The notes under the pieces are model-generated. The model did not search any database and had not been told where the DNA came from. It saw only the letters and a program-made list of their open reading frames with translations. Below, in pieces: positions 2,308-61,867 of a stretch of DNA of 64,000 nucleotides. The position numbers and the translations under genes were made by a program. Position 1 is the first letter of the stretch, and every line of letters begins with the position of its first letter. Source of the DNA: Candidatus Marinacidobacterales bacterium (lineage in GTDB: Bacteria > Acidobacteriota > Vicinamibacteria > Marinacidobacterales > SMYC01); the NCBI GenBank assembly GCA_965262245.1, contig OZ253507.1, positions 8,796,911 to 8,860,910 of the forward strand, in the 5' to 3' direction.

Positions 2308-2379
2308 GGTGGCTCCTTGTCCCCCTCTGGAGACGGTTGTTTGGCACGACCTATTCTTAGGCCGGCCAAGGAGCCGCCG

Positions 2380-3840: not shown

Positions 3841-3986
3841 TGAGGCCGTTTTCGAATACTAAGCGGACGATTCCGCTCCTGCAAGTGTGAATGCGCCGTG
3901 GCCGCCGACGCAAGCCGTCTCACTCACGCGACACGTGATTCATACGCGACGCATCCGCCGCCGTGTGAAAGGCAATGATGAGGTAG

Positions 3987-4262
3987 GATAGTTTTCTCCA
4001 ACCACGCCCCTCAGGGTCACGGATGCGGAGATCGGCATCGCCGACGATCAGCTGGAGTCGCTGTTCGATGAATTCACCCAGGCCAACAGCTCGACATCGC
4101 GACGCTACGGCGGCACCGGCTTGGAGCTTGCGATCAGTCGCCGTTTCTGTCGCTGATGGGCGGCGATATCACGGTCGAGAGCAACCCCAACAAAGGCACG
4201 ACGTTTGTCATGCAACTGCCGACCAACCCGGCCGCTCCACAGTCCGACGCGAGGGGCGGATA
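3987..4262 (+). pseudogene. histidine-kinase HATPase_c remnant, 5'-truncated, one frameshift
   Basis: Translation ..[45 protein letters not shown] / [23 protein letters not shown] is the G1/G2-box region of a sensor kinase; the frame breaks at a CC homopolymer near 4143. Confidence 0.55.
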
Positions 4263-4369
4263 GGTCCAGAACGTGGACATCGCTACGATGTGCGTCGCTG
4301 TTCCGTGACACGATGCGCCTGGTAACGTCGCTGGACAGTATCGCACGGATTGTGGTGTGATCGTTTGCT

Positions 4370-5475: not shown

Positions 5476-5637
5476 CGGATCGGTACCATGGGTCACGTTT
5501 GTCGCCGAACGAGCGTATTCCGCTGTCTTACTGCACTGGAAGCCGTGCTCCGTCGGCAGAACTATACTTCGAGCCTTGGTGCGGCGGTCGATGCCGCCTA
5601 CGCCGCCTACGAACAGCCGAGCTGAGCCGTCGCGCCC

Positions 5638-7083: not shown

Positions 7084-8588
7084 GCATATCCCTGCACCGA
7101 GTACGGACCGGTTTTTTTCTCGACTCGGTCGCCCTCATGCGCATCTCGCGAGCCGTGGCCGACAGCGACGGTGTCGAGGACGCCGCACTGATGATGGGTT
7201 CGCCAACCAATCAACGACTCATGCTCGATGCGGGACTCCTGAGTGGCGACGGTATCGACGCGAGTGGTGGTGATCTGGTGATAGCGGTTCGCGCGCGCTC
7301 AGGGGCTGCGGCGGAACAGGCGCTCGAAGCTGCCGAGTACGCGCTTGATGCGGATCGCGGTTCGCGCGGCCAGCAGAAGACTGGCGGCTTTCGACCGCGC
7401 GACCTGCGCGGTGCCTCGCAGGTGCTGCCGGTTGCCAACCTGGTGTTGATTTCGGTGCCGGGTTCGTACGCCGCTGCAGAAGCGCGCAAGGCACTCGCAA
7501 GCGGCCGGCATGTGATGATCTTCAGCGACAACGTGGCGCTGGCCGATGAGGTGGCGCTCAAACGCCAGGCGCGGGATCTCGGCTTGCTGGTGATGGGGCC
7601 GGACTGCGGCACCGCCATCATCGATGGCGTGCCGCTGGCGTTCGCGAACCGCGTCTCGAGGGGCGAGATCGGCATCGTCGGTGCATCCGGGACGGGAATG
7701 CAGGAGGTGTCGTCGCTGCTGTCCGAAGCCGGGGGCGGTGTTTCTCATGCACTGGGCGTGGGCGGGCGTGACCTCAGCGAAGCGGTGGGCGGGATTTCGA
7801 CCCTGATGGCCATGGAAGTACTCGAAGCCGACCCCGGCACTCGACATATCGTGCTGATCTCCAAACCGCCTGCCGGTGATGTCGTTGCACGCATTACGGC
7901 AAAGATCGCCGCAAGTGCAAAATCCTACACCGTGTGTTTTGTCGGGGCGGATAGTATTCCGTTGCCTCATAACGCCACCATGGCGCGTACCCTGAAGGCC
8001 GCGGCCGAGCAGGCACTCGGCGGCGTAAGCCTTGCGGGTCCCGAAGCGGTCCGGGTCGAAACGCACCGGACCATTGCGCGCGGTAGCCGTGTGCGAGGAT
8101 TGTTCGCTGGTGGTACGCTCGCCGCCGAAGCTCAAGTGGTGTTTACCGAGGCCGGTGAAGCCGTGGCGTCCAACGCCCCAGTTCCCGGGGCGAGGGAACT
8201 GGCGCGAGCCGACGGTGCACACGTCCTGCTGGATCTGGGCGATGACGAGTACACCCGGGGTCGGCCACATCCCATGATCGATCCCGCCGTGCGCGATGCG
8301 CCGCTCGCCGAGGCGTTCGCCGACGCCGGCGTCGGGGTCATTTTGCTCGACATCGTGATAGGTCAGGGTGCCGCGGAAGATCCCGCGGGCCACCTGGCAA
8401 ACTGTCTGAACGGGCGCGGCGAACAGCTACCCGTTATCGTCTGTTCGGTCACCGGCACGCGTGGCGATCGGCAGGACCGGTCACAGCAGATCGCGACACT
8501 GCGGGAGGCTGGTGTCGTCGTGGCCCCGTCGAACGCGGATGCCGCGGCGCTGGCGCTCGAGTGTCTCGGTAGCCGGCGAGGCGGCTAG
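7080..8588 (+). CDS. fdrA: FdrA-like acyl-CoA synthetase (NDP-forming) with CoA-binding and succinyl-CoA-synthetase-alpha-like domains
   Basis: LVMGPDCGTAIIDGVPLAFANRVSRGEIGIVGASGTGMQEV matches the SCS-alpha/FdrA CoA-ligase motif; 502 aa; translationally coupled to its neighbours. Confidence 0.7.
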   Translation: MSISLHRVRTGFFLDSVALMRISRAVADSDGVEDAALMMGSPTNQRLMLDAGLLSGDGIDASGGDLVIAVRARSGAAAEQALEAAEYALDADRGSRGQQKTGGFRPRDLRGASQVLPVANLVLISVPGSYAAAEARKALASGRHVMIFSDNVALADEVALKRQARDLGLLVMGPDCGTAIIDGVPLAFANRVSRGEIGIVGASGTGMQEVSSLLSEAGGGVSHALGVGGRDLSEAVGGISTLMAMEVLEADPGTRHIVLISKPPAGDVVARITAKIAASAKSYTVCFVGADSIPLPHNATMARTLKAAAEQALGGVSLAGPEAVRVETHRTIARGSRVRGLFAGGTLAAEAQVVFTEAGEAVASNAPVPGARELARADGAHVLLDLGDDEYTRGRPHPMIDPAVRDAPLAEAFADAGVGVILLDIVIGQGAAEDPAGHLANCLNGRGEQLPVIVCSVTGTRGDRQDRSQQIATLREAGVVVAPSNADAAALALECLGSRRGG

Positions 8589-8590
8589 CT

Positions 8591-9523
8591 ATGGTGTTCC
8601 CGATCCCTGATCGTCTGCTGGTCGCGATCGGCGGCAACGCGACTCACCCCGAGGACATCGAAGGGACCTCCAACGAGCAGAAGGCGATAGCGGCTCGTAC
8701 CGCTACTTCGCTGCTGCCGCTGTTGCTGCAGGACAACGAGTTGATCATCACGCACGGCAACGGTCCGGTGGTTGGCAAGATATTCATGCGCCAGGCGCTT
8801 ACGCGCGATCGCATCGCGCCGATGCCGCTCGATATCTGCGTCGCCCACAGCCAGGGCGGTATCGCTTACCTGCTCGTGCAGGCACTGGAGAGCGCGCTGC
8901 GCAGGGCCGGCAATGAGCGCCATGTCGCGTGCCTGCTTACCCGGGTCGAGGTCGACGGCGAGGACCCGGAGTTCGCACAGCCGACCAAACCGATCGGCCC
9001 GTTTTTCAGCGCGGCAGATGCCGCCGCCGTACAGGCCGAACTCGGCTGGTTGATGAAACCGGACGGCGCTCGTGGCTGGCGCCATGTTGTGCCGTCACCC
9101 GAACCGCTGCATATCTGTGACATTTCACTGGTCGAGGAGCTGGCGCAACGGGGTACGGCGGTGATCGCCGGGGGCGGTGGCGGTATTCCGGTCGTGCGCG
9201 CCCCCGATGGCGCGCGATGCGGTGTCGAAGCCGTCATCGACAAGGATCGGACATCAGCGCACATGGCCAATATTCTGGGCATCGAGACGCTGTTGATCCT
9301 CACCGCGGTGGAGCAAGTGTCAGTGGATTTCGGCGGGCCTAACGAGCGCTCGCTCGATACCGTGAGTCTGCAAGAGATCCGCCGCCTGCGTGCCGAACAT
9401 CAGTTTCCACCGGGCAGCATGGGTCCGAAGATCGACGCCGCGATTCACTTCATTGAAGGTGGCGGCGAGCGGGCAGCATTACGCGGCGAAGCCGGCACCC
9501 ATATCGTGCGAGACGATGCTTGA
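8591..9523 (+). CDS. arcC: carbamate kinase
   Basis: LLVAIGGNA ... ITHGNGPVVG amino-acid-kinase / carbamate-kinase motifs; 310 aa. Confidence 0.8.
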   Translation: MVFPIPDRLLVAIGGNATHPEDIEGTSNEQKAIAARTATSLLPLLLQDNELIITHGNGPVVGKIFMRQALTRDRIAPMPLDICVAHSQGGIAYLLVQALESALRRAGNERHVACLLTRVEVDGEDPEFAQPTKPIGPFFSAADAAAVQAELGWLMKPDGARGWRHVVPSPEPLHICDISLVEELAQRGTAVIAGGGGGIPVVRAPDGARCGVEAVIDKDRTSAHMANILGIETLLILTAVEQVSVDFGGPNERSLDTVSLQEIRRLRAEHQFPPGSMGPKIDAAIHFIEGGGERAALRGEAGTHIVRDDA

Positions 9524-10448
9524 TTCTAGCCAGCGTCTGGCGATCAGTGCTATCGAAGTCGGTTGTATTGCGCAGCCGAGTCTGATAGCGGGCACCGAGT
9601 TTCGGGTGGCTTCGGTGTTCACGCGCAGCTGCTACCTGGTGTCAGTGACCGGCGACTGGATCTGCCTGCTGCCCGAGACGGCTACGGCCGACCCGCTGGG
9701 CGTGCGGCTTCGCGTGTCTGGCGGTGTGGACTGGCACGCAAGCGGGGTGGCCGCCGGCATGCATTGCTGGTGCGGCGTATCGGCACTTTATGTCGGCGCG
9801 CGACTGGCGATACACCTCAGTGATGCACCCACCTGGACTCCGTCGGCGCCGCCGCCATGCAACAGGGTGTCGCTGATGCGGGGCTTGACGTGTCTCGATG
9901 CAAGCGCGATGACACGGGATGCCGGCGAGAAGCAGGGGTTGCTGTCGCTCGTCTACCCTGCAGCTGGGTATGCTGGCCGTCTTGCGCACGCCGCGGACCC
10001 GACGGTCCGGGCATTACGCGCGTGGTTGAGGCAGGCGCTGCCGGCGGCGACGGTCATGGCTCCGCCTGCGCTCGACTCGCTGGTCGGACTCGGTCCGGGT
10101 CTCACCCCATCAGGTGACGATTTCATCGGCGGCGTTCTGGCCACGTTGTATCAACTGGGCTACCAGCCGGTTGCCGAGCGGCTCTACGAGACCGCCGCGC
10201 CGCTCGCGGCGCAATCCGGCAATCCGATCAGCGCCGCCTACCTTGCCGCTGCTGCGCGCGGGGCGGCGAATGCTGACATTCATCGAGGATTGCACGCAGT
10301 GCTCAACGGTGACATGGACGAGATTGGCGAAGCGTTGCGGGCGATTGGCGGTATCGGGCACACGTCGGGATTCGATACGTTTGCCGGTGTCATCGTGACG
10401 CTGCGTTGCATAGCCGAATTCGAGTTCGGCGGGTGCCCAACCAGATGA
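9516..10448 (+). CDS. ylbF: DUF2877-family protein (YlbF-like); likely start ATG at ~9516, overlapping the carbamate-kinase stop (ATGCTTGA)
   Basis: 310-aa protein after carbamate kinase in the position YlbF holds in the E. coli locus; 8-bp overlap implies translational coupling. Confidence 0.5.
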   Translation: MLDSSQRLAISAIEVGCIAQPSLIAGTEFRVASVFTRSCYLVSVTGDWICLLPETATADPLGVRLRVSGGVDWHASGVAAGMHCWCGVSALYVGARLAIHLSDAPTWTPSAPPPCNRVSLMRGLTCLDASAMTRDAGEKQGLLSLVYPAAGYAGRLAHAADPTVRALRAWLRQALPAATVMAPPALDSLVGLGPGLTPSGDDFIGGVLATLYQLGYQPVAERLYETAAPLAAQSGNPISAAYLAAAARGAANADIHRGLHAVLNGDMDEIGEALRAIGGIGHTSGFDTFAGVIVTLRCIAEFEFGGCPTR

Positions 10449-10943: not shown

Positions 10944-10986
10944 CCAGCGGCCTCGCACCCCAAGTCGGGAGCCGCTGGGTTTTTGG
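10944..10986 (+). terminator. rho-independent terminator candidate
   Basis: cccagcggc-N18-gccgctggg stem followed by TTTTT. Confidence 0.45.
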
Positions 10987-11114
10987 GCCACCACTCGATG
11001 CTAGATTAGTGCCGCCGGGCTGGCATCGTTGCAACGCCCGCGCTTCGCGTGGGCTAGCCCTCCGCCCGACAGGGTCGCTGCGGGAGGCGGCACGGCAAGC
11101 CCTCCGCCACGCCG

Positions 11115-14100
11115 TCACGGCTGCCGGCCGGTTGAGGACTCTCCGTTACTCGACTCGGTGGCTCCCAGGATTCCGTCGAGCTTTTCCACTTGCTCCCGAA
11201 GTGCGCCTTCCAGTTGCTCGTAACGCTCGTAGGCGTCTCGGCCGGGCCGCTGGTCGGTGCGCCTCAAGTTCTGATAGAGGTAAACGAGCTGGTCCAAGAT
11301 CATGGGCTCGGCCTTCCACACGCTTCCAGCTTTGGGCAGCGCGGGGAGCAGCGCCTTTTTGATCTCGAGGAGAGTCTCGTCGTCGGGCCGTTGTTCGAGC
11401 GCCTTGTCGAGTCGGGTTGCAGCCCGGCGCGCGCTGCTGAGGGCATCACGCGTTTTGAGAACGAGCTCGACCTGAGCGGTGACGTCCGCCTCGGTGACCG
11501 TGCCTTCCTTGACGATTCGGGGATCCATCCTTGTTTCGAACGAGACGGTTTGCGTCCAATCTCCCGAAGTGAGTCGCGCCCGGTAGGTTCCCGGCGCCGC
11601 CATAGGTCCGTCTCGGCCGGATCGCTTCTCATCGGAATCCCACGGACCGTCATGCAAAAGATCCCAAAGGAAGCGATGCATCCCGGCGCTTTTCTCTAGC
11701 GCCGGACGTTCGAGCTCCGACTCGCCCATGCTGACCTGCTCGGGCACTACGTTCTGCTCGCTTGACGCCTCGCTCGAGTAGGCACGGATGACGTTTTCCT
11801 GCCCGTCGAGAATCTCGAGCTGGATCTCTCCCGCCGGCTCGGTGGCCAAGTAGTAGTCGATGTTGGCCCCGGGGAGTGGGTACTGAGGCTCGCTGGGTTC
11901 TGGAGTGCGGCTGAATCGGCGAGGGTAGAAAAGACGATAGGCATCCTTGACCTCGAAAAGATGGCTCTCCGCAGACGCCACTTTGTCGTCGATCTCGTGA
12001 AGCGGCGTCACGTCGTACAAGATCCAAAAACCCCTGCCCATCGTGGACAGCACCAGATCCTCGTTTACCACCTTGATGTCGGTCACCGGTGTGACAGGCA
12101 AGTCGAGCTGAAACGACTGCCAGTGTGCCCCGTCATCGAACGAGAGGAACATCCCGAACTCGGTTCCCGCGTAGAGCAGCCCCTCTCGATCGGGATCCTC
12201 CCGGACTACCCGGACCGGGTAGTCGTTGGGAATGCCGTTCTCCCCGGTTGTGATCCGCGTCCAGCTCTCCCCGTAATCCTCGGTTTTGTAGACGTGGGGG
12301 GTGAAGTCGTCGAGCATGTATCTCAGGATGGAGATGTATGCCTTGGATGGCTTGTGGGGGGACACCTCGATTTGCTGAACTCGGCCATAGGGTCCGAGCC
12401 CGGAAGGGGTCACGTCCTTCCAGTTCTTCCCGTTGTCCCGAGTGATATGGATGGGCCCGTCATTGGCGCCTACCCAGACCACCCCCCGCTCATGTGGCGA
12501 CTCCTGGATGTCGTAGATGGTGCTGAAGTGCTCCTCCCCGGTTGCATCGATGGTGATCGGTGTGCCGGAGAGCACCTGGGTTTCCGTCGTGAAGGCGGTG
12601 AGGTCCGGGGATATAGTCTGCCAGGACCTGCCGGCGTCCTCGGTCACGTGCACGTAGTGCGAGGTATGGTAGACCCGATTCGGATCGTGCGGAGAGACGT
12701 GGATGGGCGACACCCTCTGGAAGCGGAATCGGAGGTCTTTCGGGTTGAAACCGTTGATGTTCCAAAATCCTACGTAATAATGTTGCTCCTGGCCCGTGCG
12801 CCGGTTGTAGAGGCTGAAACGGCCCTTGCATTCGGCGTAGACAAGGTCGGCATCACCCGGCTTGGGAACCACCGGTCCGGTCTCGCAACCGCCGTGGGTT
12901 TCCCATAGCGCCGTGTGCCCGCCGGGCATGCTCCGCGGCGGAAGGCTCGGAAGGGAGATGGTCGTGTTGTCTTGCTGCCCCGCGTACATCCGATAAGGGA
13001 ACTCATCGCTCACGTCCACCTGATAGAGCTCCGCGGTCGACTGGTTGTGCATACTGGACCAAGTCTTGCCGCCATCGAGGGTGACGACCGCCCCTCCGTC
13101 GTTCGCTTGGATGAAGATGTGCGGGTTATCGGGGTTGATCCACATGTCATGGTTGTCACCGTGGGGTATGGTCTGGCGATCCCAAGTCTTGCCGCCGTCC
13201 TCGGATTTGTAGTACCCCTCGGCCATCGCCCAAAGCGTGTCCGGATCCTTCGGATGAGCATCGAGGTTGCAAAAGTAGAAGGGGCGGTAGAGGATCTCTT
13301 TGTGGTCCGAGACTTGAGACCAGCTCCCGCCGCGATCGTCGGAGCGGTAAACGCCGCCCTCGTCGCCGGGCGCTTCGATCAACACATAAACCCTATCGGG
13401 GTCGGCCGCCGAGACGGCTAGATCCGCTTTTCCTCGGAGGCCGTTCGGGAGGCCATTCGTCAACTGGGACCAGTGATCCCCTCCGTCAGTGGATTTATAG
13501 ACCCCTCCCTCGTCGCCGCCGCTGATGATGGTCCAGGGCTTGCGCTCCGCGAGCCACATGGTGGCGTAGATCTCATCCGGATTGTCCGGGGCGAACTCGA
13601 GGTCGACGGCGCCCGTTTTCTCCGATATGTACAGCACCTTCTCCCAGGACTCTCCTCCGTCCCTCGACCGGTAGACCCCACGCTCGGGGTTCGCGCCAAA
13701 CGGGTTGCCGATGGCGGCGACGTACACGAGATCCGGGTTGCGCGGATGGATGAGGAGCGCTCCACTATTGCCCGTCTTCTCGAGGCCGATATGCGTCCAG
13801 GTCTTCCCGGCGTCGGTGGACTTGTAAACGCCTTTTCCGATGATCACGTTGCTTCGGATTCCGTCCGAGCCGGTGGCGACGTAGACGATATTGGGATCCG
13901 ACTCGGCAACCCGGATGGCGCCAATCGAGCCGGTGGCAAAGTAGCCATCGGAGATGGGGTGCCAGGTGTGGCCGTAATCGGTGGTCTTCCAGACGCCACC
14001 TCCGCTCGCTCCCATGTAGAACGTCGACGGCTGGTCCCGGTGGCCGGCAACCGCGGTCACCCGGCCTCCCCGGGACGGGCCCACCGTCCGATAGGACAGA

Positions 14101-51428: not shown

Positions 51429-53150
51429 TCATTGTACCGCGCTGCCACGGCCCGGGTGCGAGTGCCCTTGCGAAAGCGGCAGCGCGTCGGCGCCCTTCTG
51501 GGGACTCCCGAATTTTTCACCGAAGAAGTCCCCGGGGTTCCAGGTGGGCCGATCCGCGTCCGAGGCCACGTGAAATCCCAGGATAAAGTTCGTATTGGCG
51601 AAGAGGGCGGCAGCGTCCAGATCCATCGGCTGGTTCAGATCGTCGGCGGGCTGATGGTAGCGTGTTCGTCTCCACTCGTCCTTGAGCGCCGCGCCATCCC
51701 GGTCGGGCTCGCCCGTCTCGAGACCCAGGTTCATGAAGACGGCGGGTACGCCCCAGCGCACGAAGCTGTACTGGTCGCTTCGGATGAAGAGCACTTCTTC
51801 TGGCTCGGGGTCGGGGCTGACCCGGAGGTCCATTTGTGCCGCGACACGCTCGACGACGTCGGCAAGGCTGGAGTGCTCGGCGCCGGTGGGAATGATCTCG
51901 TGGAGCGCGTGCATTACCGGTCCGGCATCCAGGTTGAGGTTGGCCACTATCTGCTCCCGGGGGACGGTGGGGCGAGACATGAAGTAGTCCGAGCCGAGGA
52001 GTCCCTTCTCCTCTCCGGTCACGGCCAGAAACAATACGGAGCGCCTGGGTGGTTCTTCCAGCGTGGCGAAGGCGTGAGCGATCTCAATCATCACCGCCAC
52101 CCAGACGGCGTTGTCCATGGCGCCGTTGTATATCGCGTCACCGTCGACCGGCTCACCGATGCCAACGTGATCCAGATGCGCGCTGTAGACGACGTACTCG
52201 TCTCGAAGCTCCGGATCCGAGCCCCGGCGCTGGCCGATGACATTGGGGCTTTCGACGCGCTCGTGGCGCGTCGCCACGTCGAGCTCCGCTTCGAAGGCAA
52301 GGTCGAACGGCTGCGGCCCCCCGTTCCCGGCTCGCGACAAAACATCCTCCAGCCTCTGCGGAGCGCCTTCGAACACCGCCTCGGCGCCGTCCAGGCTCAG
52401 CTGGGCAGCGGCACGGATCGCATTTGCCACGCCGACGGGCTCGTTGTCTTCGTTCAGCCAGCGCATGCTGGCGAACCCGCTTCGGCGAACCAGGGCGGGC
52501 CAAGGCCGCCGCCTCCGGTCCACCGCGCTCTGAACGGTCAGCACGCCCACCGCTCCGTGGTAGGCGGCATTCTCGAGCTTCAGCCGGCTCGACGAGAAGT
52601 AAGCGCGCTCGTTGTGGGGGAAGCGCGCGGGCGCGCCTGACAACAGGACCGCGATCTTTCCCGCCGCATCGATCCCCGCGTAGTCGTCGTGGTCGAGCTC
52701 CGGCGCCGTCACCCCGAAGCCGACGAAGACGAGGGGAGCACGCACCCGGCTTCGCTCGCGCACGAGGTCCGCCGACAGCAGGTAGTGCTCACCGTGCTCC
52801 AGCCGCCGTGCCACCCCCTCCCTATAGAGGGTCAGGGAGCTTTCGCCGGGCACGAGGTCGGCTTTGCGAAAGGCAACGGGCTGAAAGTATGTTCCACCGT
52901 TCCCGGCGGGCTCGAGACCCACGGCCTCCAGCTGAGCCGCAACGTAGTTGGCCGCAAGCTGGTAACCGCGCGTCCCCGTGCCGCGCCCTTCGAGCAGGTC
53001 ATCCGCCAGAAAACGTACATGTGCCCGGATGGCGTCGGGACGGATAGTCTCGAGCGCGGCGGCGGTGGCGGTCCGCGGCCTCGACGACCCACACGAGAGG
53101 GAACCGAGCGCGAGGACTAGGACGAAAAGGACGGACGTGCGATCTTGCAT
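51429..53150 (-). CDS. M28-family peptidase lipoprotein with a PA domain (second copy, diverged)
   Basis: Likely start MQDRTSVLFVLVLALGSLSCGSS (lipobox) with an AGGAGA RBS; ..YSAHLDHVG..GAMDNAVWVAVMIEIAHAF..FLAVTGEEKGLLGS.. M28 zinc-ligand motifs. Confidence 0.75.
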   Translation of the reverse strand: MQDRTSVLFVLVLALGSLSCGSSRPRTATAAALETIRPDAIRAHVRFLADDLLEGRGTGTRGYQLAANYVAAQLEAVGLEPAGNGGTYFQPVAFRKADLVPGESSLTLYREGVARRLEHGEHYLLSADLVRERSRVRAPLVFVGFGVTAPELDHDDYAGIDAAGKIAVLLSGAPARFPHNERAYFSSSRLKLENAAYHGAVGVLTVQSAVDRRRRPWPALVRRSGFASMRWLNEDNEPVGVANAIRAAAQLSLDGAEAVFEGAPQRLEDVLSRAGNGGPQPFDLAFEAELDVATRHERVESPNVIGQRRGSDPELRDEYVVYSAHLDHVGIGEPVDGDAIYNGAMDNAVWVAVMIEIAHAFATLEEPPRRSVLFLAVTGEEKGLLGSDYFMSRPTVPREQIVANLNLDAGPVMHALHEIIPTGAEHSSLADVVERVAAQMDLRVSPDPEPEEVLFIRSDQYSFVRWGVPAVFMNLGLETGEPDRDGAALKDEWRRTRYHQPADDLNQPMDLDAAALFANTNFILGFHVASDADRPTWNPGDFFGEKFGSPQKGADALPLSQGHSHPGRGSAVQ

Positions 53151-53302
53151 GGGCGTTATCTCCTGAGATGGGCGTGAATTTTCTGTAATCTTGAACAGTT
53201 TCATATAGAAATAATAACTTGACAAATAAGGAAAAGTGAGTGTCCTTCCACATACCAAAAACAAAACGGTCGCAGCTAAGCGGCCAATGGAGGGACACCT
53301 CA

Positions 53303-53590
53303 ATGAAGAGCAATATCACGCGCGAAGAGTTCAGTAAAGAGGTAGGTCGTCTGTTCGAGGAATTCGCCGAGGAAGTTTGGCAGGCGGTAGTGGAACTGGA
53401 AGCCGATGTGCAACGGTGTGATGAGTGGATGCGGGACAAGGGAAGCGCCTACCTTCGCGAAGTCCTAGGCAAGGCGCTCAGCCAACGCGCGGAGGGTGTT
53501 ATCTCTCACGCTGTGCCGCGATCCACCATCCTTGATCGTCGGATTATGCCCGGGGTGAAATGCCTGAGAAGGTGGCGACGGGTGGGATGA
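53303..53590 (+). CDS. small hypothetical protein (~95 aa) at the start of the transposition module
   Basis: ATG with a GGAGGG RBS, straight after an AT-rich stretch. Confidence 0.3.
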   Translation: MKSNITREEFSKEVGRLFEEFAEEVWQAVVELEADVQRCDEWMRDKGSAYLREVLGKALSQRAEGVISHAVPRSTILDRRIMPGVKCLRRWRRVG

Positions 53591-53666
53591 GGAGAGGTTG
53601 GCGGTATGTGATGAGATCGGTTATGAGGAGAGTGCGGTCTCGGGCATCTGAGGCTGGAAAAAGGAG

Positions 53667-54311
53667 ATGGGCCCGCCACGTTCCAAGCGTGCGGGCCCGT
53701 GGCCGGTGCAACTTCGTCAGCATACAACGCTCACCAGCGAGCAATACGTTAGCGAAAGAGGCTGGCTTCACGCAAGTCTGAAACGGTGCCCAAGTCACCC
53801 TGGTGGTGGCTGTCGTTTTTCCCGCCATGGCACCTACCCGAGGGTTGAGCCGCCTGGGATGGAAGTGCCTCGTTGGTACTGCCGGGATGCCCATCGAACG
53901 TTTAGCTTGCTGCCGGACTGCATGAGCGCGCGGCTGACGGGAAGCCTCGACGAGGCGGAGCAGGTCGTGGTGAAGGTGGAGGAGTCTCGGAGCGTTGAGG
54001 CGGCGGCAAAGAAGCTGCGTCCGGAGATCGAGGTGGCAGGAGCGGTCCGCTGGGTTCGCCAGCGTCTGCAAGGTGTGCGCGACAGCCTACTGATTCTACT
54101 GACGCTGTTGCCCGACCGTCTGGGGACAAAGGCACGGTTGGTGGAGGTGCGGAGCATCCTGGCGTCGGAGCGGGCTTTGGTGGCGTTGCGCGAGATCGGC
54201 GCGCCGCATCTCCACGTTTTGCCTCGGCCGCTCGGATTCCGCCCGGCCGGAATCCGAACGTCGAAAAGTGAGGATCGACTCCAACACAAAACGGGGGCAG
54301 ACCCGCCGTAG
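53667..54311 (+). CDS. zinc-ribbon protein (zf-ISL3-like CP..G..R.HG.Y.R ... RW.C....RTFS.LP) of unknown role, first gene of the TniA/TniB-like module
   Basis: ..KRCPSHPGGGCRFSRHGTYPRVEPPGMEVPRWYCRDAHRTFSLLPDC..; no DDE domain follows. Confidence 0.4.
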   Translation: MGPPRSKRAGPWPVQLRQHTTLTSEQYVSERGWLHASLKRCPSHPGGGCRFSRHGTYPRVEPPGMEVPRWYCRDAHRTFSLLPDCMSARLTGSLDEAEQVVVKVEESRSVEAAAKKLRPEIEVAGAVRWVRQRLQGVRDSLLILLTLLPDRLGTKARLVEVRSILASERALVALREIGAPHLHVLPRPLGFRPAGIRTSKSEDRLQHKTGADPP

Positions 54312-55382
54312 CACCTTGCGGTAGATTCCTCTCGCCCGCTAGCAAGCCGGGCAGAGAGGAGCCAACAGTCATGGATAAGAAGACACGCCAGCAGATCGCG
54401 CTGTTTCGCCACGGCCTCATCGGAGACCTCGTGCACCGGAAAGTGGGTGAGCGGGGTCTTTATGCTCTGCTGCGTGACAAAGCAGAGCGGGTCTACGAGA
54501 TCCCGGGGTCCCGAAGAACTCGTGTAGCCGTCGAGACGCTTCGGGATTGGCTGGACTCGTACCGGCGCGGTGGATTCGATGCACTCTATCCCCAGCCGCG
54601 ACGCGATCAAGGGCAAGCTCGCGCGATTCCACAAGAGGTGGCCGATCATCTCTGCACCATCAAGGAGAACAACCGTGCCCTTTCGGTTGCCCTTGTTATC
54701 GAACAAGCTCAGCGAAGCGGTGCGGTTCCCGAATCGGTAAACCTTGCTCCCGCCACGGTGCATCGCCTGCTTTGTCGCCATGACCTTATGGGCAAGAAAG
54801 CTTACGAGCCCACCTCCAAGGACCGCCGGCGCTTCGCCTTCGACAAAGCGAATGAGCTGTGGATGAGTGACGTGATGCACGGGCCGAGCGTCTTTGCCGA
54901 CGGAAAACGCAAACGCAAAACGTACTTGATCGCGACGCTCGACGACGCCACCCGCGTCGTTCCTTACGCCGCCTTCGCTATGCATGAGAACACTGCTGCC
55001 TTCTTGCCTGTTCTGCAAACAGCCATCCTACGCCGCGGCATCCCCAAAAGACTCTACGTCGACGACGGCTCCGCCTACCGCTCTCAGCACCTCGCGCTCG
55101 TCTGCGCCAAGCTCGGCATCACGCTCATCCACGCTCGCCCCTACCAGCCTCAGGGCAAAGGAAAACAAGAACGTTGGTTTCGCACCGTGCGGATGCAACT
55201 TCTGCCCATGCTCACCCAAGACGATTTCAAAAGCCTCGAAGCGCTCAACTCCAGGCTCTGGAGTTGGGTCGAGGCCGAATATCACATGAGTCCCCACCTC
55301 AGGCTGAAGTGGACCCCATTTTTTAGACCAGGGGTTAAGGTGGTAAAACAAGCCTGCTCAATAAAAAAAGGAGCAGAGAAAA

Positions 55383-55670
55383 GTGAAGAAAAATCGCACG
55401 AAGCACAGCCCTGTTTTCAAGGCGAAAGTTGCATTGGCGGTACTACGCGAGCAGGAGACAGTGGCGGAACTATCCCGGCGGCACAAGGTTCACGCGAACC
55501 AGATCTACAAATGGAAGCGGCAGCTTTTGGAGAACGTCACGCGTGCTTTCGAGACCGAAGAGGTGGGCGGAGGCGATGCCTCGATGCGCGAGGCCGAACT
55601 GCTTCAGAAAATCGGGGAGCTGACGATGGAGCGCGATTTTTTATCACACGGGCTCGGTCGATTGCGATGA
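55383..55670 (+). CDS. IS3-family OrfA (HTH transposase subunit) ending just after a canonical T-TTT-TTA -1 frameshift heptamer (~55627)
   Basis: ..[33 protein letters not shown].. IS3/IS911 OrfA; the heptamer lies in frame 0 with orfB in frame -1. Confidence 0.8.
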
Positions 55671-56506
55671 CGCCCCGGCGGGAGTTGGTCGAACCCAACG
55701 CTCCGCTGTCGATGCGCTGGCAGTGCGAGCTGCTCGGCGTGAATCGGTCGAGCCTATACTACGAACCTGTCGAGCCGGATGGCGAGCAACTCGCATTGAT
55801 GCGTCGGATGGACGAGCTACATCTGAAGCGTCCATTTTTCGGCAGCCGCATGATGACACAGACACTCAAAGCGGAGGGGTCGGCCGTCAACCGCAAGCGC
55901 GTGCAGCGTCTTATGCGGTTGATGGGGCTCGAGAGCACTGCGCCCAAGCCGAACACAAGCAAGCCAGCGCCGGAACACACGGTATACCCCTATCTACTGA
56001 GGAATCTGACGGTTTCTCGGATCAATCAGGTGTGGGCCGCCGACATCACATACATCCCGATGGCGCGAGGCTTCGTATACCTGGTGGCGGTCATCGATTG
56101 GTATTCGCGGCGGGTGCTCGCCTGGCGCTTGTCCAACACGTTGGAGACGACCTTCTGCGTGGAGGCTCTGAACGAAGCTGTGGCACGCTACGGTTGCCCA
56201 GAGATATTCAACACGGACCAGGGCTCTCAGTTCACCTCGGAGGAGTTCACCAGTGTATTGCTTGCTCTTGAGATCAAGATCAGCATGGATGGCAAAGGTC
56301 GCTGTATCGACAACATCTTCGTGGAGCGGCTCTGGCGCTCGCTGAAGTACGAGGAGGTCTACCTGTACGCCTACGACACCGTGCAAATGGCTCGCGCGGG
56401 CATCGCTTGCTACTTCGATTTCTTCAATGACGAGCGCCCGCACAAAGCGTTAGGCTATCAAACGCCCGCGAGCTTCTACGATGGACTGCTTGGCGAGGTT
56501 GCTTGA
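55667..56506 (+). CDS. IS3-family OrfB (rve integrase core), expressed as an OrfAB fusion
   Basis: [36 protein letters not shown].. ..[11 protein letters not shown].. ..[13 protein letters not shown].. ..[12 protein letters not shown]; the DDE triad context is intact. Confidence 0.8.
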
Positions 56507-56762
56507 AGATGATTGGCCATCGACCGATTTGTACATCACAGCATCATCCTGGAGCTCAACGTCGGCAGTTACCGACTGGGGCAATCGAAGCAGAACAAGG
56601 CCAAAGAGGCCACGGCGGTAGAAAACCGGGAAAAGGAATGAACCTTGCCACGAGTCCACAAAACGAATGCGAGAATCGCCGCAGGAGACCCTCTCGCGGC
56701 TTGGCCCATACCCCAGGTACCCCGATTTTTGCACTATTCAGGTGGACCAGCGAAAGGGCGGC

Positions 56763-56853
56763 TTCGATCCGGGGCCCCGACGGAGGGAGCGGACAAGGAA
56801 GCTTCGCATCTTTTTTTAAGGGTCCGCTCCCTCCGTCGGGGCCCCGGATCGAA
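56763..56853. repeat. large perfect inverted repeat (29-32-bp arms, 27-nt loop holding a T7 run) inside the IS3 3' non-coding region
   Basis: ttGATCCGGGGCCCCGACGGAGGGAGCGGAC-aaggaagcttcgcatctttttttaagg-GTCCGCTCCCTCCGTCGGGGCCCCGGATCaa. Confidence 0.8.
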
Positions 56854-57535
56854 CATGGGACACTTTGCTGATAAGTGACGGAGCAAGACCGGTAGGTACC
56901 CGGGAATTCTAACTTGTTGCTGAAGAGAAATAATAATTGCCGCTAGACACAATGATGGCTACAGCGAAAAACAAACTGTCCACAGATTTTCAATCTGCCA
57001 TAAACTGTGTTCCCGAACGCTCCCTTCTAGGAGCCTTCGGGAAACAACATCACGACTATGACCACGACGTGTTCAACTCGGCAGGCTCCACCTTAGCTAC
57101 CCCCTATTTTGGTCCAGAGAATGGGGTCCACCTCAGGCCTCGACGGCATCACACCTTTCGACCGCTGGGCCACCGCCGCAGACGACGTCACCCTACCCGG
57201 CCCTGAGCGCGACCTCGATGAACTGTTCCTCTTCGAGCTCAACCGCAAAGTTCAGAGTGACCGTACCATCAGCCTGCATGGCGCCGTGTACGAGCTCGAT
57301 GCTTGCTTGGTCGGCCAGACCGTCACCGTGCGTTTCAACCCCTCCCGCCGCGGCCAGCCCATCGACGTCTACTTCAAGGGACGCAAATACAAAAAAGCTA
57401 AAACCGTGGACACCTACGCCAACTGCTTCGTTCGCCGGGACCACACCACCAAGCACCTTTATCCCGACACACCGCCTAAGCCGCCGCCGCCAGGACTATC
57501 CTTGCGCCATCTCAAAAATCGGAAGGATCGTTAAC

Positions 57536-58333
57536 ATGTACCGCAAGCACTTCGGCCTCACCCAACATCCCTTCAGCAACGAGATCGAACCCGAGGAGCT
57601 TTTCCTCGCAACCTCTTACAAGGAGCTCGAGGTCCGCCTCGCACACCTCATCGATATGCGCGGCATCGGGCTCGTCACCGGTGATAGCGGAAGCGGAAAA
57701 ACTTGCTGCTGTCGTAAGGTCCTTCACGCTCTGCACGCCTCGCTCTATCGCGTGCTATACGTGTGCCTGTCCACCGGAAACGTCATGGACCTCTACAAAA
57801 CCATCTCCTGGGAGATGGGACTGCCCGTTGAACGCAGCCGAGCCGCACTCTTCCGTCAGATCCGCGCCGAGGTCACGCGGCTCGTCTCCGAGGCAAGATG
57901 CCGACCTATCCTCGTCATCGATGAGGCTCACCACCTCAGGCCCGAGGTGCTCGAGGAGCTCCGCCTGCTCACCAACTACAACATGGACGCCGAAAACCGC
58001 CTTTGTCTGTTACTGCTCGGCCAGAGCGAGCTGAGACGGCGACTCTCCATGGCCGTCCACGAGGCGCTCTCTCAGCGCATCGTCGTCCGATACCATCTCA
58101 GCCCTCTCACCCGCGAGGAGCTCCCCGCCTATCTCACCCATCGTCTCCGGTGCGCCGGTACCGAACTGCCCATCTTCGAGCCACCCGCACAAGAGGCCCT
58201 GTTCCAGGCGAGCGGCGGCCTGCCCCGCAAAGTCAATCTCCTCGCTCACCACGCTCTGCTCGCCGCCGCTCTAGCTCGCACTAAATCCGTCTCCGCCGAG
58301 CACGTCGAGCTCGCTCTTCCCGAGGTCGCCTGA
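57536..58333 (+). CDS. AAA+ ATPase of the ExeA/TniB-like (AAA_22) type; transposition-ATPase partner of the Mu-type transposase
   Basis: MYRKHFGLTQHPF.. (ExeA-like start), Walker A GDSGSGKT, Walker B ILVIDEAHHL, then ..LLGQSELRRRL.. and RIVVRYHLSPLTREE. Confidence 0.7.
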   Translation: MYRKHFGLTQHPFSNEIEPEELFLATSYKELEVRLAHLIDMRGIGLVTGDSGSGKTCCCRKVLHALHASLYRVLYVCLSTGNVMDLYKTISWEMGLPVERSRAALFRQIRAEVTRLVSEARCRPILVIDEAHHLRPEVLEELRLLTNYNMDAENRLCLLLLGQSELRRRLSMAVHEALSQRIVVRYHLSPLTREELPAYLTHRLRCAGTELPIFEPPAQEALFQASGGLPRKVNLLAHHALLAAALARTKSVSAEHVELALPEVA

Positions 58334-58348
58334 GGGGGGAGCGTCGCT

Positions 58349-58687
58349 ATGACCCAGCACAACCGACACCCGCCTCCCGGTGACGCCTTGGCATCGAAGC
58401 GACAGGACCACACGACCATCGACTTCTCGTCGACTCCTACCCTTCAGCACGACCATCGTATTACCGACCTACTCGACTACCTGCAACACCGCTTCTCCGC
58501 CTATCCCTTCAATCGAAAACTCGACACCGCCTTCATCCTCGAACTCGCCGCTGACTTCGAACGAGTGAATCTCCTCGAGCAGACCAAAACTTTCCGCTGG
58601 TACTACGACGATGATCTTTCTCGTCTCGGCAACCCACGAGCTGCGCTACGACGATGGATGGCTCGGGCTCAGGATCGTTTTGCGTGA
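58349..58687 (+). CDS. hypothetical protein (112 aa) between the ATPase genes
   Basis: ORF only. Confidence 0.3.
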   Translation: MTQHNRHPPPGDALASKRQDHTTIDFSSTPTLQHDHRITDLLDYLQHRFSAYPFNRKLDTAFILELAADFERVNLLEQTKTFRWYYDDDLSRLGNPRAALRRWMARAQDRFA

Positions 58688-58736
58688 GCAGCCGCCGTCG
58701 CAGTGCGTGCCCTGCCTCTTTGGTGCCCTCCCGAGG

Positions 58737-59714
58737 ATGAGTCTCGCGCTTCCCGTTCAGCCCGCTCACGAGCTCGACGCTCACCTTGCTGCTCCTCGAT
58801 GGCTCATCGAAGGCTTATGGGCCGACGAGGCGGTCGGTATCGTCGGCGGCGAACCCAAATCTTTCAAGAGCTTCCTCGTCCTAGATATGGCCGTTGCCGT
58901 CGATTCCGGCTCACCTTGTCTTCGACACTTTCCCGTTGCCCACACGGGACGCGTTCTCCTCTACGCCGCCGAAGATGCGCTTCAGGTCGTGCGCCGAAGA
59001 CTCGAAGGTATCTGCCATCTCACACATCTCAACCTCGCACAACTCGATATTCAGGTCATTACCGCTCCGTCGCTCAGACTCGACACCCTCGAGGATCAGA
59101 AGAGGCTTCGTTTTACTATCGAGCAGCTTCGACCTAGGCTCCTGCTCCTCGACCCCTTTGTTCGCCTCCACCGTATCGACGAAAACGCTTCTTCCGATGT
59201 CGCCGCCATTCTGGCTTACTTCCGTGAGCTCCAGCGTTTGTTTCATCTCGCCGTTGTTGTCGTCCACCACGCTAGAAAAGCTGCCAACCACCTCCGCGCT
59301 GGGCAGGCACTGCGCGGCAGCTCCGAGTTTCATGCTTGGGGCGATTCCAACCTCTACATCAAGCGAAAGGCCGATCATCTCACGCTCACCATCGAGCACC
59401 GCGCCGCGGCCGAGCAGAACGACCTGCCTTTGACTCTTCAGGGAGCGAACGACCAGCTTGCTCTTTGCATGCTCGAAAACCGGCCGCCACCAAAGCCGCC
59501 CCGCTCCCCAGCCCACGAGCAAATCCTTGATGCGCTCGCTACTGCTGAATCACCTCTTGTTTTTTCCGTACTTCGCCAAGCCTGTCGCATGCGAACTCAG
59601 ATCTTCTGCAGCGTCCTCGCTGAAATGCAACAGCAGGGCAAGGTGGTCAAAACTCCGAACGGCTATCAGCTCGTCTCCGCAGCTGCCGGCGTTTCCCTTT
59701 CCCGATCTCTATAG
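58737..59714 (+). CDS. AAA_25 / RepA-like (RecA-fold) ATPase, ~325 aa, cargo of the transposition module
   Basis: ..WLIEGLWADEAVGIVGGEPKSFKSFLVLDMAVAV.. (Walker A GxxKS), ..LLLLDPFVRLH.. (Walker B), ..VVVVHHARK..; start chosen at an internal Met after the upstream stop. Confidence 0.55.
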   Translation: MSLALPVQPAHELDAHLAAPRWLIEGLWADEAVGIVGGEPKSFKSFLVLDMAVAVDSGSPCLRHFPVAHTGRVLLYAAEDALQVVRRRLEGICHLTHLNLAQLDIQVITAPSLRLDTLEDQKRLRFTIEQLRPRLLLLDPFVRLHRIDENASSDVAAILAYFRELQRLFHLAVVVVHHARKAANHLRAGQALRGSSEFHAWGDSNLYIKRKADHLTLTIEHRAAAEQNDLPLTLQGANDQLALCMLENRPPPKPPRSPAHEQILDALATAESPLVFSVLRQACRMRTQIFCSVLAEMQQQGKVVKTPNGYQLVSAAAGVSLSRSL

Positions 59715-59890
59715 AGAGATCGGGAAGCGGAAACGAAACTCCTCTCGTTCTCACCACATCTGCTCACTTTGCTCCGTCGAAGACCACAAACCACACGACC
59801 CTTCAATGTGAGATATCGCCCTCTTTGCATCACGGATCACCGTGATAAATACGTAAGGGAACTCCTCGATAAATAACAGAGAGTCTCGGA

Positions 59891-60229
59891 GTGTCAGGCG
59901 CATGCGAATGCGGCGCGGCGATGGAGTTCCGACAACGTCGACCGTTCCGGGTGCACACGGTGCTGGCGGGGCGAGAAGTTGAGCTGAGTGTTTTCTACGG
60001 GCAGTGTTGTGAATGCCGGCAAGGCAACTACCCGCTGCTGGAAGAGATGAAAGTGGACCGGGAAGGATTCACGCAAGCCCTACAGGAGTTGTCGCTGTTG
60101 GCGGGAGTGATCGAACCCTACCGCTCCGCGAGCGAGCAACTGCTGCGAAAATTCACCGGGGTGGAGGTGAGCTCGGAGAAAATTCATGATCTATTCCTGA
60201 TCCTCCTGATCCTTGCTGAAGCTATATAG
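59891..60229 (+). pseudogene. N-terminal fragment (112 aa) of an ISKra4-like (ISNCY-type) transposase, truncated where it meets hyuB
   Basis: CxxC...CxC zinc module, then ..YPLLEEM..SEQLLRKFTGVEVSSEKIHDL.. as in ISKra4-type N-termini; the reading ends in junk. Confidence 0.4.
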
Positions 60230-61867
60230 CTTCCAGGCGGCTTCGGCGGAGACGAGCTCGTTCGCCACGTCCGAGCGTACCTGCTCGCGATCTCTAGCCT
60301 TGGGGTCACCGTAGCCACCTCCGCCGGGGGTGTGAATGATCAGCCGTTCGCCGGCGCGAATGATCTGGGTCCCCTTGCCGCGCAACCGCTCGCCGGAGGC
60401 GAGGAACACCGCACCGGACTCCCCCTGGCCGCCTAAACGTCGGCCCAAAGCCGGGTGCGCAATGCGATCGAAGGCCGCGAGCAGTTCGAAATCGGAGTCG
60501 ATCGCGCTTTCGATCTCGAGCACCTGGCCGAGGCCGCCGCGATGCTCGCCGGCGCCGCCAGAATCCGGCCGGAGCTCCTTGCGGTGGAAAATCAGCGGCG
60601 CCAAGGATTCGTTGATCTCCACGGGGGTTCCCCGGACACCGCTGGGATAGGCGGTAGCGGACAGGCCGTCGCTCGTCGGTCGCGCGCCAGTGCCTCCGTT
60701 CGTGACGGCGGTGGTGATGAAGATGGTGCTGTCGTTCGGGCCCCGATCCCTTTCGCCCCGGAAGGTGAGATTCCAAAGGCAAGAGGCGCCCTCGGCGGGG
60801 ACGCGGTCGGGCTTCACCTGAACGAGACAGCCGAAGACAACGTCGGGCAGCATTTGACCGATAATGTGGCGGGCATTGATCGCCGCCGGATAAGGAGCGT
60901 TCAAAATAGATCGTAGCGGGGCGGTGACCTTGAAGGGCGCGAGCGATCCCGCGTTATTGGGCACCTCCGGCGAGACAATGCAGCGCAAGCCGAAACAGGT
61001 ATAAGCTGCCGTATAGGCGATCGGCACATTGACGCCGTACTTGGACATGGGCGATGTGCCGTCGTAATCGACGGAAATACCGTCATCGGAAATGGTCAGC
61101 TCCGCGACCAGATCGACTGCATTGTCGTATCCGTCGATGCGCATGGTGTTGCGGAAGGTGCCCTTCGGCAACTCGGCGATTTCGGCCATCACCGCATCGT
61201 AGGAGTTGGCGCAGATGTATTCGGCAAGTGAGTCGAGTCTCTCCAAATCGAATTCGTCCATCATCTCGACCAGCCGAGCGCAGCCGATATCGTTGCAGGC
61301 GGCCAGCGAGTAGACATCGCCTTCCGTTTCCACGGGCTGGCGTGTATTGGCCCGAATCATCGCCATCAGAGTCTCGTTGATTTCCCCCCGGTCGGCGAGC
61401 TTCAGCATCGGGATGTAGATGCCTTCCATGTGCACGTCCGTGCCGTCTGGTCCCATGCCGACACCGCCGATGTCCGTGATATGGGACGTGCAGGAAAAGA
61501 GCGCGACGAGATGCCCGGCTTTGAAGCAGGGAGTCGTGAGAACGAAGTCGTTGGTATGTCCGGTTCCCAGCCAGGGATCGTTGGTAATGTAGATGTCGCC
61601 CTCGCGCATCGTCTCGATTGAGAAATGACGAAGGAAGTGCTTGACCGATTCCGCCATGGAGTTCACATGACCCGGGGTGCCCGTGACCGCCTGCGCGAGC
61701 ATCCGCCCCTTGATGTCGAAGACACCGGCGGACAGGTCGCCGCATTCGCGTACGATGGCGCTGAAGGCCGTGCGTACCAGGGTCCTTGCTTGCTCCTCGA
61801 CCACAGAGATGAGCCGATTCCACATCACCTGCATGCGAATCGTGTCCAAGGCGCCTTTGTCGCTCAT
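60191..61867 (-). CDS. hyuB: hydantoinase B / 5-oxoprolinase B subunit (HyuB family)
   Basis: 558 aa; the ..DPWLGTGH..HLNDF.. Hydantoinase_B core region is preserved. Confidence 0.8.
   Translation of the reverse strand: MSDKGALDTIRMQVMWNRLISVVEEQARTLVRTAFSAIVRECGDLSAGVFDIKGRMLAQAVTGTPGHVNSMAESVKHFLRHFSIETMREGDIYITNDPWLGTGHTNDFVLTTPCFKAGHLVALFSCTSHITDIGGVGMGPDGTDVHMEGIYIPMLKLADRGEINETLMAMIRANTRQPVETEGDVYSLAACNDIGCARLVEMMDEFDLERLDSLAEYICANSYDAVMAEIAELPKGTFRNTMRIDGYDNAVDLVAELTISDDGISVDYDGTSPMSKYGVNVPIAYTAAYTCFGLRCIVSPEVPNNAGSLAPFKVTAPLRSILNAPYPAAINARHIIGQMLPDVVFGCLVQVKPDRVPAEGASCLWNLTFRGERDRGPNDSTIFITTAVTNGGTGARPTSDGLSATAYPSGVRGTPVEINESLAPLIFHRKELRPDSGGAGEHRGGLGQVLEIESAIDSDFELLAAFDRIAHPALGRRLGGQGESGAVFLASGERLRGKGTQIIRAGERLIIHTPGGGGYGDPKARDREQVRSDVANELVSAEAAWKLYSFSKDQEDQE

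Follow-up and report, generated by a model that had tools for sequence, protein, structure and literature searches.

A widespread transposon unit of zinc-ribbon protein, DDE transposase and AAA+ ATPase genes, found as an inactive nested copy with a RepA-like AAA_25 gene in a Candidatus Marinacidobacterales genome

We analysed a transposon in the genome of Candidatus Marinacidobacterales bacterium (assembly GCA_965262245.1), using a stretch of 64,000 nucleotides of contig OZ253507.1, positions 8,796,911 to 8,860,910, which is called the window below. From its left end to its right end, the transposon carries co-directional genes for a zinc-ribbon protein, a DDE transposase, an AAA+ ATPase of the AAA_22 type, a protein of 112 amino acids (aa) and an AAA_25 ATPase. 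Their positions are summarized in Table 1. An earlier note on this DNA, made from the letters and their open reading frames (ORFs), had recognised this series of genes and proposed a transposon with a DDE transposase and AAA+ ATPase core. Profile searches confirmed most of the listed genes, and the profiles, the boundaries and the other copies described below agree with the proposed core. The nested IS3 element, the ISKra4 target gene and the inactivity of this copy had been missed.

Table 1 Positions of the transposon, its genes and the elements nested with it in the window.
Feature	Position	Strand	Remarks
Transposon	53497-59878	+	6,382 bp in its present state; 4,548 bp after subtraction of the IS3 element and its 3-bp duplication
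Left terminal inverted-repeat tip	53497-53509	+	TGTTATCTCTCAC
Zinc-ribbon protein, 214 aa	53667-54311	+	Distant DUF6431-like relative; conserved first gene of the family
DDE transposase, N-terminal part, 311 codons	54371-55304	+	HTH_28/HTH_32 and rve core (Pfam, NCBIfam)
Nested IS3-family insertion sequence	55305-57135	+	1,831 bp, inside the transposase gene of the transposon
IS3 orfA	55383-55670		IS3 orfB extends to 56506; NF033516 275 bits
DDE transposase, C-terminal part, Mu-transpos_C	57139-57534	+	PF09299 24.2 bits; colinear with L096 residues ~313-442
AAA+ ATPase, 265 aa, ExeA/MuB-like	57536-58333	+	AAA_22 91 bits; TIGR03015 173 bits
Small protein, 112 aa	58349-58687	+	Residues ~35-110 form the conserved domain
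AAA_25 RecA-fold ATPase, 325 aa, with C-terminal winged helix, RepA-like	58737-59714	+	Pfam AAA_25 110 bits
Hairpin with 21-nt arms over the AAA_25 stop codon	59690-59735	+	Arms 90% complementary
Right end	59834-59878	+	Two 18-nt direct repeats, GGATCACCGTGATAAATA / GGAACTCCTCGATAAATA, and tip ..GATAAATAACA
Left copy of the 5-bp target duplication, GAGGG	53492-53496		Right copy GAGAG, 59879-59883, one mismatch
5' fragment of ISKra4-family transposase gene	53303-53496	+	Insertion target, outside the transposon
Second ISKra4 transposase fragment	59879-60190	+	NF033572 profile positions 58-154

The ends of the transposon were determined by alignment with other copies, as the earlier note had advised. 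These copies were found through near-identical zinc-ribbon relatives on large contigs of other, related assemblies. DNA similarity to L001, L002 and L095/L096 begins precisely at 53497 and stops precisely at 59878; outside these positions, there are four different left flanks and three different right flanks. The L095/L096 copy is intact; L096 is 99.6% identical to the window element (20 differences in 4,548 positions) and has an uninterrupted transposase gene at 7858-9186, encoding 442 aa. The L002 copy is internally rearranged. The transposon is therefore real, and in related genomes it has reached at least four sites by moving as one unit.

TGT...ACA termini were observed in all copies. The left tip is the sole exact match in the window to the family consensus, TGTTNNCTCTCAC, and is also found in the relatives L004, L006, L009 and L016. 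The right end is homologous to that of the close relative L107 (..GGGAACTACGTGAGAGACAACA), with a diverged tip. Because of this divergence, an inverted-repeat search over 52900-60400 detected no terminal repeats, and the ends were therefore set by comparison with other copies. The sequence GATAAATA is present at exactly two places in the window, 59844 and 59868 (0.31 expected by chance), and both fall inside the two 18-nt right-end repeats, which are spaced 24 bp apart. Two AT-rich stretches had been proposed as the bounds of the element. The left one, 53160-53300, is no boundary; the right one holds the right end, together with the repeated motifs that had been pointed out there.

We examined the target duplications of the window copy and its relatives. 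Excision of the window element with 5 bp restores the frame and length of the interrupted ISKra4 protein relative to its homologues P0241-P0244. An 8-bp duplication was ruled out for this copy, because the ISKra4 protein would then be one residue shorter than its homologues. Two sister copies have longer duplications, CCCTCC (6 bp) in L095/L096 and CACGGCCC (8 bp) in L002. The duplications of the P0105 loci L004, L006 and L009 were unreadable, as their left and right flanks were mismatched, probably because short-read assemblies had linked flanks that belong to different copies. The duplications were instead read in long-read genomes, where nine copies of relatives had a clean 5-bp duplication and inverted repeats starting with TGT.

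The target of the insertion is a transposase gene of the ISKra4 family. It lies in about 7 kb of lower-GC DNA with mobile-element genes, placed between a minus-strand peptidase-like gene that starts near 53150 and a second minus-strand gene at 60191-61867. The ORF 53240-53590 had been taken as the first gene of the element, but it is the 5' end of the ISKra4 gene and reads over the insertion junction, 53496/53497. On the right side, the ORF 59891-60229 was identified by profile search as an ISKra4-family transposase fragment, which ends at about 60190, beside the stop codon of the minus-strand gene. When the two pieces were joined, they gave one continuous alignment to NF033572 (positions 30-153, 40.7 bits; 32.8 bits for the right piece alone). 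The uninterrupted homologues P0241-P0244 read ..ALSQRSERLGVSGACECG.. across the junction, and the window reads ..ALSQRAEG, the insert, and (E)SLGVSGACECG... The transposon thus landed in a transposase gene of ISKra4, now decayed, and duplicated 5 bp on insertion.

The five closest database homologues of the ISKra4 protein (P0241-P0245; 61-86% identical) are all short, 139-203 aa compared with about 420 aa, and a plasmid search with this protein gave no match. This ISKra4 lineage seems to be decaying wherever it is seen.

The transposase gene of the transposon is itself interrupted by an IS3-family insertion sequence. Its termini are 27-nt inverted repeats, 85% complementary (TGAAGTGGACCCC.. 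and ..GGGGTCCACCTCA), and its target duplication is GGC at 55302-55304 and 57136-57138. A single transposase ORF had been read here, 54371-56506 (711 aa). The ORF is a chimera of residues 1-311 of the element transposase, with HTH_28/HTH_32 and part of the rve core, and IS3 orfB, which is complete at residues ~470-700 (HTH_21, rve and rve_3 by Pfam). L096 represents the empty site of the IS3 element and reads CCCCACAAAGGCCTCGAC (CCCCAC-AAA-GGC-CTCGAC). At the left IS3 junction of the window, AAA is replaced by CTCA with one extra base, so that even clean excision of the IS3 element would leave a frameshift. As the gene is split and the frameshift would remain, the window copy is dead and cannot move on its own. 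The locus is a three-deep nest: the ISKra4 gene received the transposon, and the transposon later received the IS3 element.

The left IS3 junction, 55294-55304 (compare 57128-57138), reads CCACCTCA-GGC-TGAAGTGG, which corresponds to the last 8 nt of the right end of the insertion sequence, the 3-bp duplication and the left end; intact L096 has CCCCACAAAGGC at this site. The junction resembles one of abutted ends, or an insertion beside an end-like sequence. Downstream of orfB, the IS3 tail (56507-57135) consists of ~630 bp of non-coding-looking DNA with a perfect 32-nt inverted repeat that forms a hairpin at 56763-56853. ORFs in the tail had no Pfam match. An Rfam search gave sub-threshold miRNA-like matches on two hairpins only, which were judged to be chance. 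IS3 copies in L002 are 97% identical, and the L002 copy has no alignment to the tail at 56863-56983.

We compared the three core proteins with profile and structure databases. The repaired window transposase scored 201.6 bits with the IS481 profile NF033577, its best-scoring transposase family, under the NCBIfam cut-off of 224, and 40.3 bits with the IS21 profile NF033546, whose cut-off is 160. Among its matches in the Protein Data Bank (PDB), TnsB of ShCAST was the best (E 5e-11) and IS21 IstA the second (E 1e-9). The AAA+ ATPase scored 19.2 bits with Pfam TniB (cut-off 22.4) and matched phrog_296, annotated as 'DNA transposition protein', with an E-value of 6.5e-30; MuB (8xvb) was its sole PDB sequence match (E 2.5e-6).

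The zinc-ribbon protein has more than 827 homologues, with no precomputed Pfam domain, and the few source names are all 'hypothetical protein'. Residues C41, H44, C49 and C72 are invariant, and C85 is nearly so. The profile searches that had been proposed for the uncharacterised proteins gave domains for the ATPases; the zinc-ribbon protein reached DUF6431 (PF20020) weakly only, in four of 35 members (best E 0.015). An hhalign comparison with a Cupriavidus DUF6431 protein aligned the zinc motif with an E-value of 0.0018 and a probability of 15%. The AlphaFold2 model of the zinc-ribbon protein had a pLDDT of 83, and no PDB neighbour was found for it (best E 0.018, TM <= 0.22).

A scan of the genome collection with the zinc-ribbon alignment detected 428 relatives in species-representative genomes, from phyla including Acidobacteriota, Proteobacteria, Spirochaetia, Chloroflexota, Gemmatimonadota and Actinomycetota, among others. 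We checked gene order in 80 fetched genome loci. The zinc-ribbon, transposase and ATPase genes followed each other in this order in 58 of them, and the transposases and ATPases were 52-76% and 58-88% identical to those of the window, respectively. The three conserved genes occupy elements of 3.4-3.5 kb, and elements with four to five genes measure 4.4-4.5 kb. Copies of 3.4-3.5 kb that are 99.9-100% identical were found at several places and in several contexts within single genomes or metagenomes. The three-gene unit is thus conserved across many phyla, and the zinc-ribbon gene, which the earlier note had placed outside the canonical set, is its conserved first gene.

The same trio is carried by two RefSeq plasmids, Geobacillus pGS18 and Cupriavidus necator pBB2, where the genes are annotated as 'DUF6431 domain-containing protein', 'IS481 family transposase' or 'DDE-type integrase', and 'AAA family ATPase'. 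The transposases of pGS18 and pBB2 are 40% and 39% identical to that of the window, and the ATPases 37% and 33%. A literature search found no paper describing this element type in the collection of papers that was covered. The family is widespread and annotated piecemeal in RefSeq, and apparently undescribed.

In a different setting, members of one zinc-ribbon subclade (47-49% identity) head units that go on with a gene for an HTH_36 protein and three tyrosine recombinase genes in a row. Such units were observed at L045, L061, L070 (9992-14405), L085 and L098, the last being positions 6001-9828 of Marinobacter VT8 pMAQU02. Recombinase-in-trio (RIT) elements resemble the window element in having this relative as their first gene. 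They differ in lacking the DDE transposase and AAA+ ATPase, in their chemistry and in the HTH_36 protein after the zinc-ribbon gene. One accessory protein family is common to two unrelated kinds of mobile element.

We next describe the AAA_25 gene, which had been regarded as cargo. Homologue lengths indicated that its start is at 58737 and not at 58611. RSF1010 RepA helicase (1g8y) was the sole PDB sequence match of the protein (E 2.2e-7), and among fold matches RepA had the best target-normalised TM-score (0.67-0.69; 0.69 for 1olo). A scan of metagenomes with the AAA_25 alignment returned 80 loci. In all 73 of those with at least 200 bp of upstream sequence, an AAA_22 ATPase gene lies directly upstream; 72 of these belong to a sister family, called family B, and one (L107) is a close relative of the window core, whose family is called family A. 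The gene lies inside the element, as had been said, and it is a regular partner of such transposition modules rather than chance cargo.

Family B has a different zinc-ribbon/HTH protein, a 480-aa transposase, a 285-aa AAA_22 ATPase and AAA_25, in this order. Its transposase is 24-27% identical to that of the window and its AAA_22 ATPase ~30%. Start and stop codons overlap (L092), and the inverted repeats TGAGCACG.../...CATGCTCA enclose the AAA_25 gene. AAA_25 is thus the fixed fourth gene of family B. In family A, the AAA_25 gene comes after the ATPase gene in three lineages, namely the window type, L107 and the alphaproteobacterial L054/L055/L057, which have 5-bp duplications. The window segment 58709-59744, including the hairpin, is 88% identical in nucleotides to the family-B element L101; beyond this segment, the right end of the transposon aligns with that of L107, a family-A end. 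These two observations together indicate that the AAA_25 module was exchanged between the families. It has joined a family-A core several times. Derivation of the right end itself from family B was ruled out, because family-B ends are TGAGCA.../...TGCTCA and that of the window aligns with the family-A end of L107.

The hairpin region matches L101 (5482-5527), L102, L104, L105 and L097 in both orientations with 85-87% identity. It matches L107 in one orientation only (75% over 94 bp), and L092/L093 keep the right-arm sequence. The hairpin has travelled with the AAA_25 gene and persists there in both families of elements, perhaps as a terminator or as a site for protein binding. L092 contains two family-B units head to tail, at 2260-6177 and 6325-9562. 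The second unit has no zinc-ribbon gene, and its AAA_25 protein is just 47% identical to that of the window.

The 112-aa protein was matched by 79 cluster representatives at E <= 0.001. Its domain recurs at the C-terminus of longer proteins with an N-terminal Phage_rep_O, Lin1244_N, HTH_36 or PilZ domain, and by their domains those with Phage_rep_O, Lin1244_N or HTH_36 are classed as phage O-like or replication-initiator-like. As the C-terminal domain is shared with such proteins, the 112-aa protein may be a helicase-adaptor module. In L095/L096, a 1-nt deletion fuses its gene to the AAA_25 gene, and the 454-aa versions in other copies represent this frameshift fusion. The idea that the ORF is a leftover C-terminus of the family-B ATPase was rejected, as the two have no similarity.

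We compared the element with known systems. It shares the pairing of a DDE transposase with an AAA+ target-DNA ATPase with Mu (MuA/MuB), IS21 (IstA/IstB) and Tn7/Tn5053 (TnsB/TnsC, also TniA/TniB), and its mostly 5-bp duplication with Mu and Tn7. Unlike these, it lacks TniQ/TnsD, TnsA, TnsE, resolvase and phage genes, has an ATPase that is ExeA-like by profile rather than TniB- or IstB-like, and carries an extra zinc-ribbon gene and, in some elements, a RepA-like gene. Some of its copies have duplications of 6 or 8 bp. Classical IS481 members are ~1-1.3 kb long and have a single gene (ISfinder definition). RefSeq names the Geobacillus plasmid relatives (40% identity) 'IS481 family transposase'. 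The window transposase differs from IS481 in its additional Mu-type C-terminal domain, and it always travels with the AAA+ ATPase and the zinc-ribbon protein. IS481 elements have TGT...ACA termini, the same as those of the window element (PMC11406308). By membership the element belongs to none of the Mu, IS21 and Tn7 groups, although it would work like them, and its transposase is nearest to IS481 while its architecture is not that of IS481.

The accessory genes were compared in the same way. DUF6431 proteins occupy the same position on pGS18 and pBB2, directly upstream of the IS481-like transposase and AAA ATPase genes, and both families have a C/H zinc-ribbon motif followed by R-[WFY]-x-C...T-x-S-x-LP. 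The window family differs from DUF6431 in scoring below Pfam significance, in having CPxH...C for CPxC and in its longer, helical C-terminal half. The AAA_25 protein is similar to the hexameric helicase RepA of RSF1010 (1g8y, 1nlf and 1olo) in sequence and fold. In contrast to RepA, it has an added C-terminal winged helix and an altered Walker A motif, and its gene is in a transposon, not beside a primase gene or an origin.

On this evidence, the locus is probably best read as an element with a Mu/IS21-style transposase and AAA+ regulator and a replication-type add-on. The alternative favoured by the earlier note, a Tn7- or Tn5053-like element (TnsB/TniA and TnsC/TniB) with a new target selector and an unrelated AAA_25 cargo, has in its favour the DDE transposase with Mu-transpos_C, the AAA+ ATPase, the ShCAST TnsB match, weak PADLOC matches to TnsB and TnsC of type V-K (18 bits for TnsC), the TGT/ACA termini and the mostly 5-bp duplication. 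We consider it unlikely, because the IS481 score is far higher, the ATPase is below the TniB cut-off and AAA_25 is tightly linked to such modules in all 73 loci. In addition, profile search of every element ORF on both strands detected no TniQ (PF06527), TnsA, TniR or resolvase domain, in agreement with the noted absence of TnsA and TniQ, and TniQ is reported to occur throughout the Tn7 branch (PMC10293859). An ordinary IS21 relative (IstA and IstB), which that note had named as the reading that would overturn its own, would explain the two-component design, the variable duplications of 5-8 bp and the second-best PDB match. It is nevertheless very improbable: the IS21 score is a quarter of its cut-off and far below that for IS481, the ATPase has no IstB_IS21 Pfam match and the conserved zinc-ribbon gene is not part of IS21, so that the profile scores already refute this origin unless a phylogeny nests the proteins in IstA/IstB. 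We give equally little credence to the remnant of a Mu-like transposable prophage reduced to its A and B genes, to which the phrog_296 and MuB matches of the ATPase would point; the element forms a separate 4.5-kb unit, flanked by target duplications and with ends of its own, it has many copies in many contexts, and no phage structural genes were found in any of the ~170 related loci.

A more serious alternative concerns the last two genes, which may be passengers unrelated to transposition, either a remnant of plasmid or phage replication or an undescribed defence or addiction function. The absence of AAA_25 from most family-A elements, the exchange of the AAA_25 segment with family B and the frameshift in the 112-aa ORF of the otherwise intact L095/L096 are all in line with this. 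On the other hand, AAA_25 is fixed in family B with overlapping codons, always adjoins the AAA+ gene and was gained at the same position in three family-A lineages. The zinc-ribbon, 112-aa and AAA_25 proteins had no PADLOC match and hence no defence signal, and elements of just 4.2-4.5 kb hold no other passenger. We therefore regard passengers as rather unlikely.

Several observations weigh against the reading of a Mu/IS21-style element with a replication-type add-on. About 55 of the 58 family-A elements are without AAA_25, which is therefore dispensable for the family-A core. In its fold, the AAA_25 model is almost as close to RAD51, KaiC and DnaB as it is to RepA, and the glycine before the lysine of its Walker A motif (GEPKSFKS) is replaced, so that its catalytic competence is a prediction only. 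The link between the zinc-ribbon protein and DUF6431 is weak by sequence. The right tip is unlike the left tip beyond TGTTAT, and the occurrence of 5-, 6- and 8-bp duplications among window-type copies is unusual for a Mu-like transpososome. The steps suggested for all five proteins are drawn by analogy.

On the model of MuA/MuB, IstA/IstB and TnsB/TnsC, the transposase would bind the terminal and subterminal repeats, the latter being the two 18-nt repeats at the right end, and perform staggered strand transfers mostly 5 bp apart. The AAA+ protein in its ATP-bound form would coat the target DNA and then recruit and activate the transposase for strand transfer. The zinc-ribbon protein would be a DNA-binding accessory, for regulation or for recognition of ends or target. 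Since its family also heads tyrosine-recombinase trios, DDE chemistry is unlikely to be needed for its role, which is probably regulatory or one of DNA recognition, not catalytic. The RepA-like AAA_25 protein would be a hexameric helicase and the O-C-terminal-like 112-aa protein its adaptor, and the pair would lessen dependence on host restart proteins. That the two drive replication through the transposition intermediate is quite possible, though we would stop short of calling it likely. A broader proposal is still more tentative, namely that AAA_25, with the 112-aa protein where present, is a transposon-encoded helicase module by which a DDE/AAA+ transposon would organise its own replication, and that the zinc-ribbon protein is a general 'mobile-element adaptor' for DDE and tyrosine-recombinase elements. 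If it were true, it could mean replicative transposition without host restart factors, or a circular copy-out intermediate kept as a short-lived episome.

Transposons with DDE and AAA+ proteins (Mu, IS21, Tn7 and CRISPR-associated elements) provide the best-understood models of target choice and are the basis of programmable insertion tools. The present family is compact (3.4-4.5 kb) and very widespread, joins an IS481-type transposase to a MuB-like ATPase and has an uncharacterised zinc-ribbon protein in place of TniQ. If AAA_25 acts as a helicase on transposition intermediates, the elements that carry it would be among the rare bacterial DDE transposons that encode a replication factor of their own. 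The window itself is in practice a dead, nested pile of three insertion elements.

Other insertions were observed in relatives of the transposon. Cassettes of ~3.4 kb with a serine recombinase of the large type lie inside the transposase gene in L005 (11482/11483), L003 (~11538 and ~14877), L027 (~11474 and ~14826) and L094 (3488-7484). In family A, they occupy the identical nucleotide position, AAGG/GGAA, in the codons of the conserved ..GKGK/xERW.. catalytic-E motif, and the cassettes of L003 and L005 are just 66% identical. Because different cassettes share one site, they resemble a family of integrative elements whose attachment site is the transposase motif. Tyrosine-recombinase trios interrupt or replace parts of the transposon in L022 (1793-4655), L069 (~10958-13518) and L097 (6104-9372). 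Together with the IS3 and serine-recombinase insertions, this shows that the transposase genes of this transposon family are frequent landing sites.

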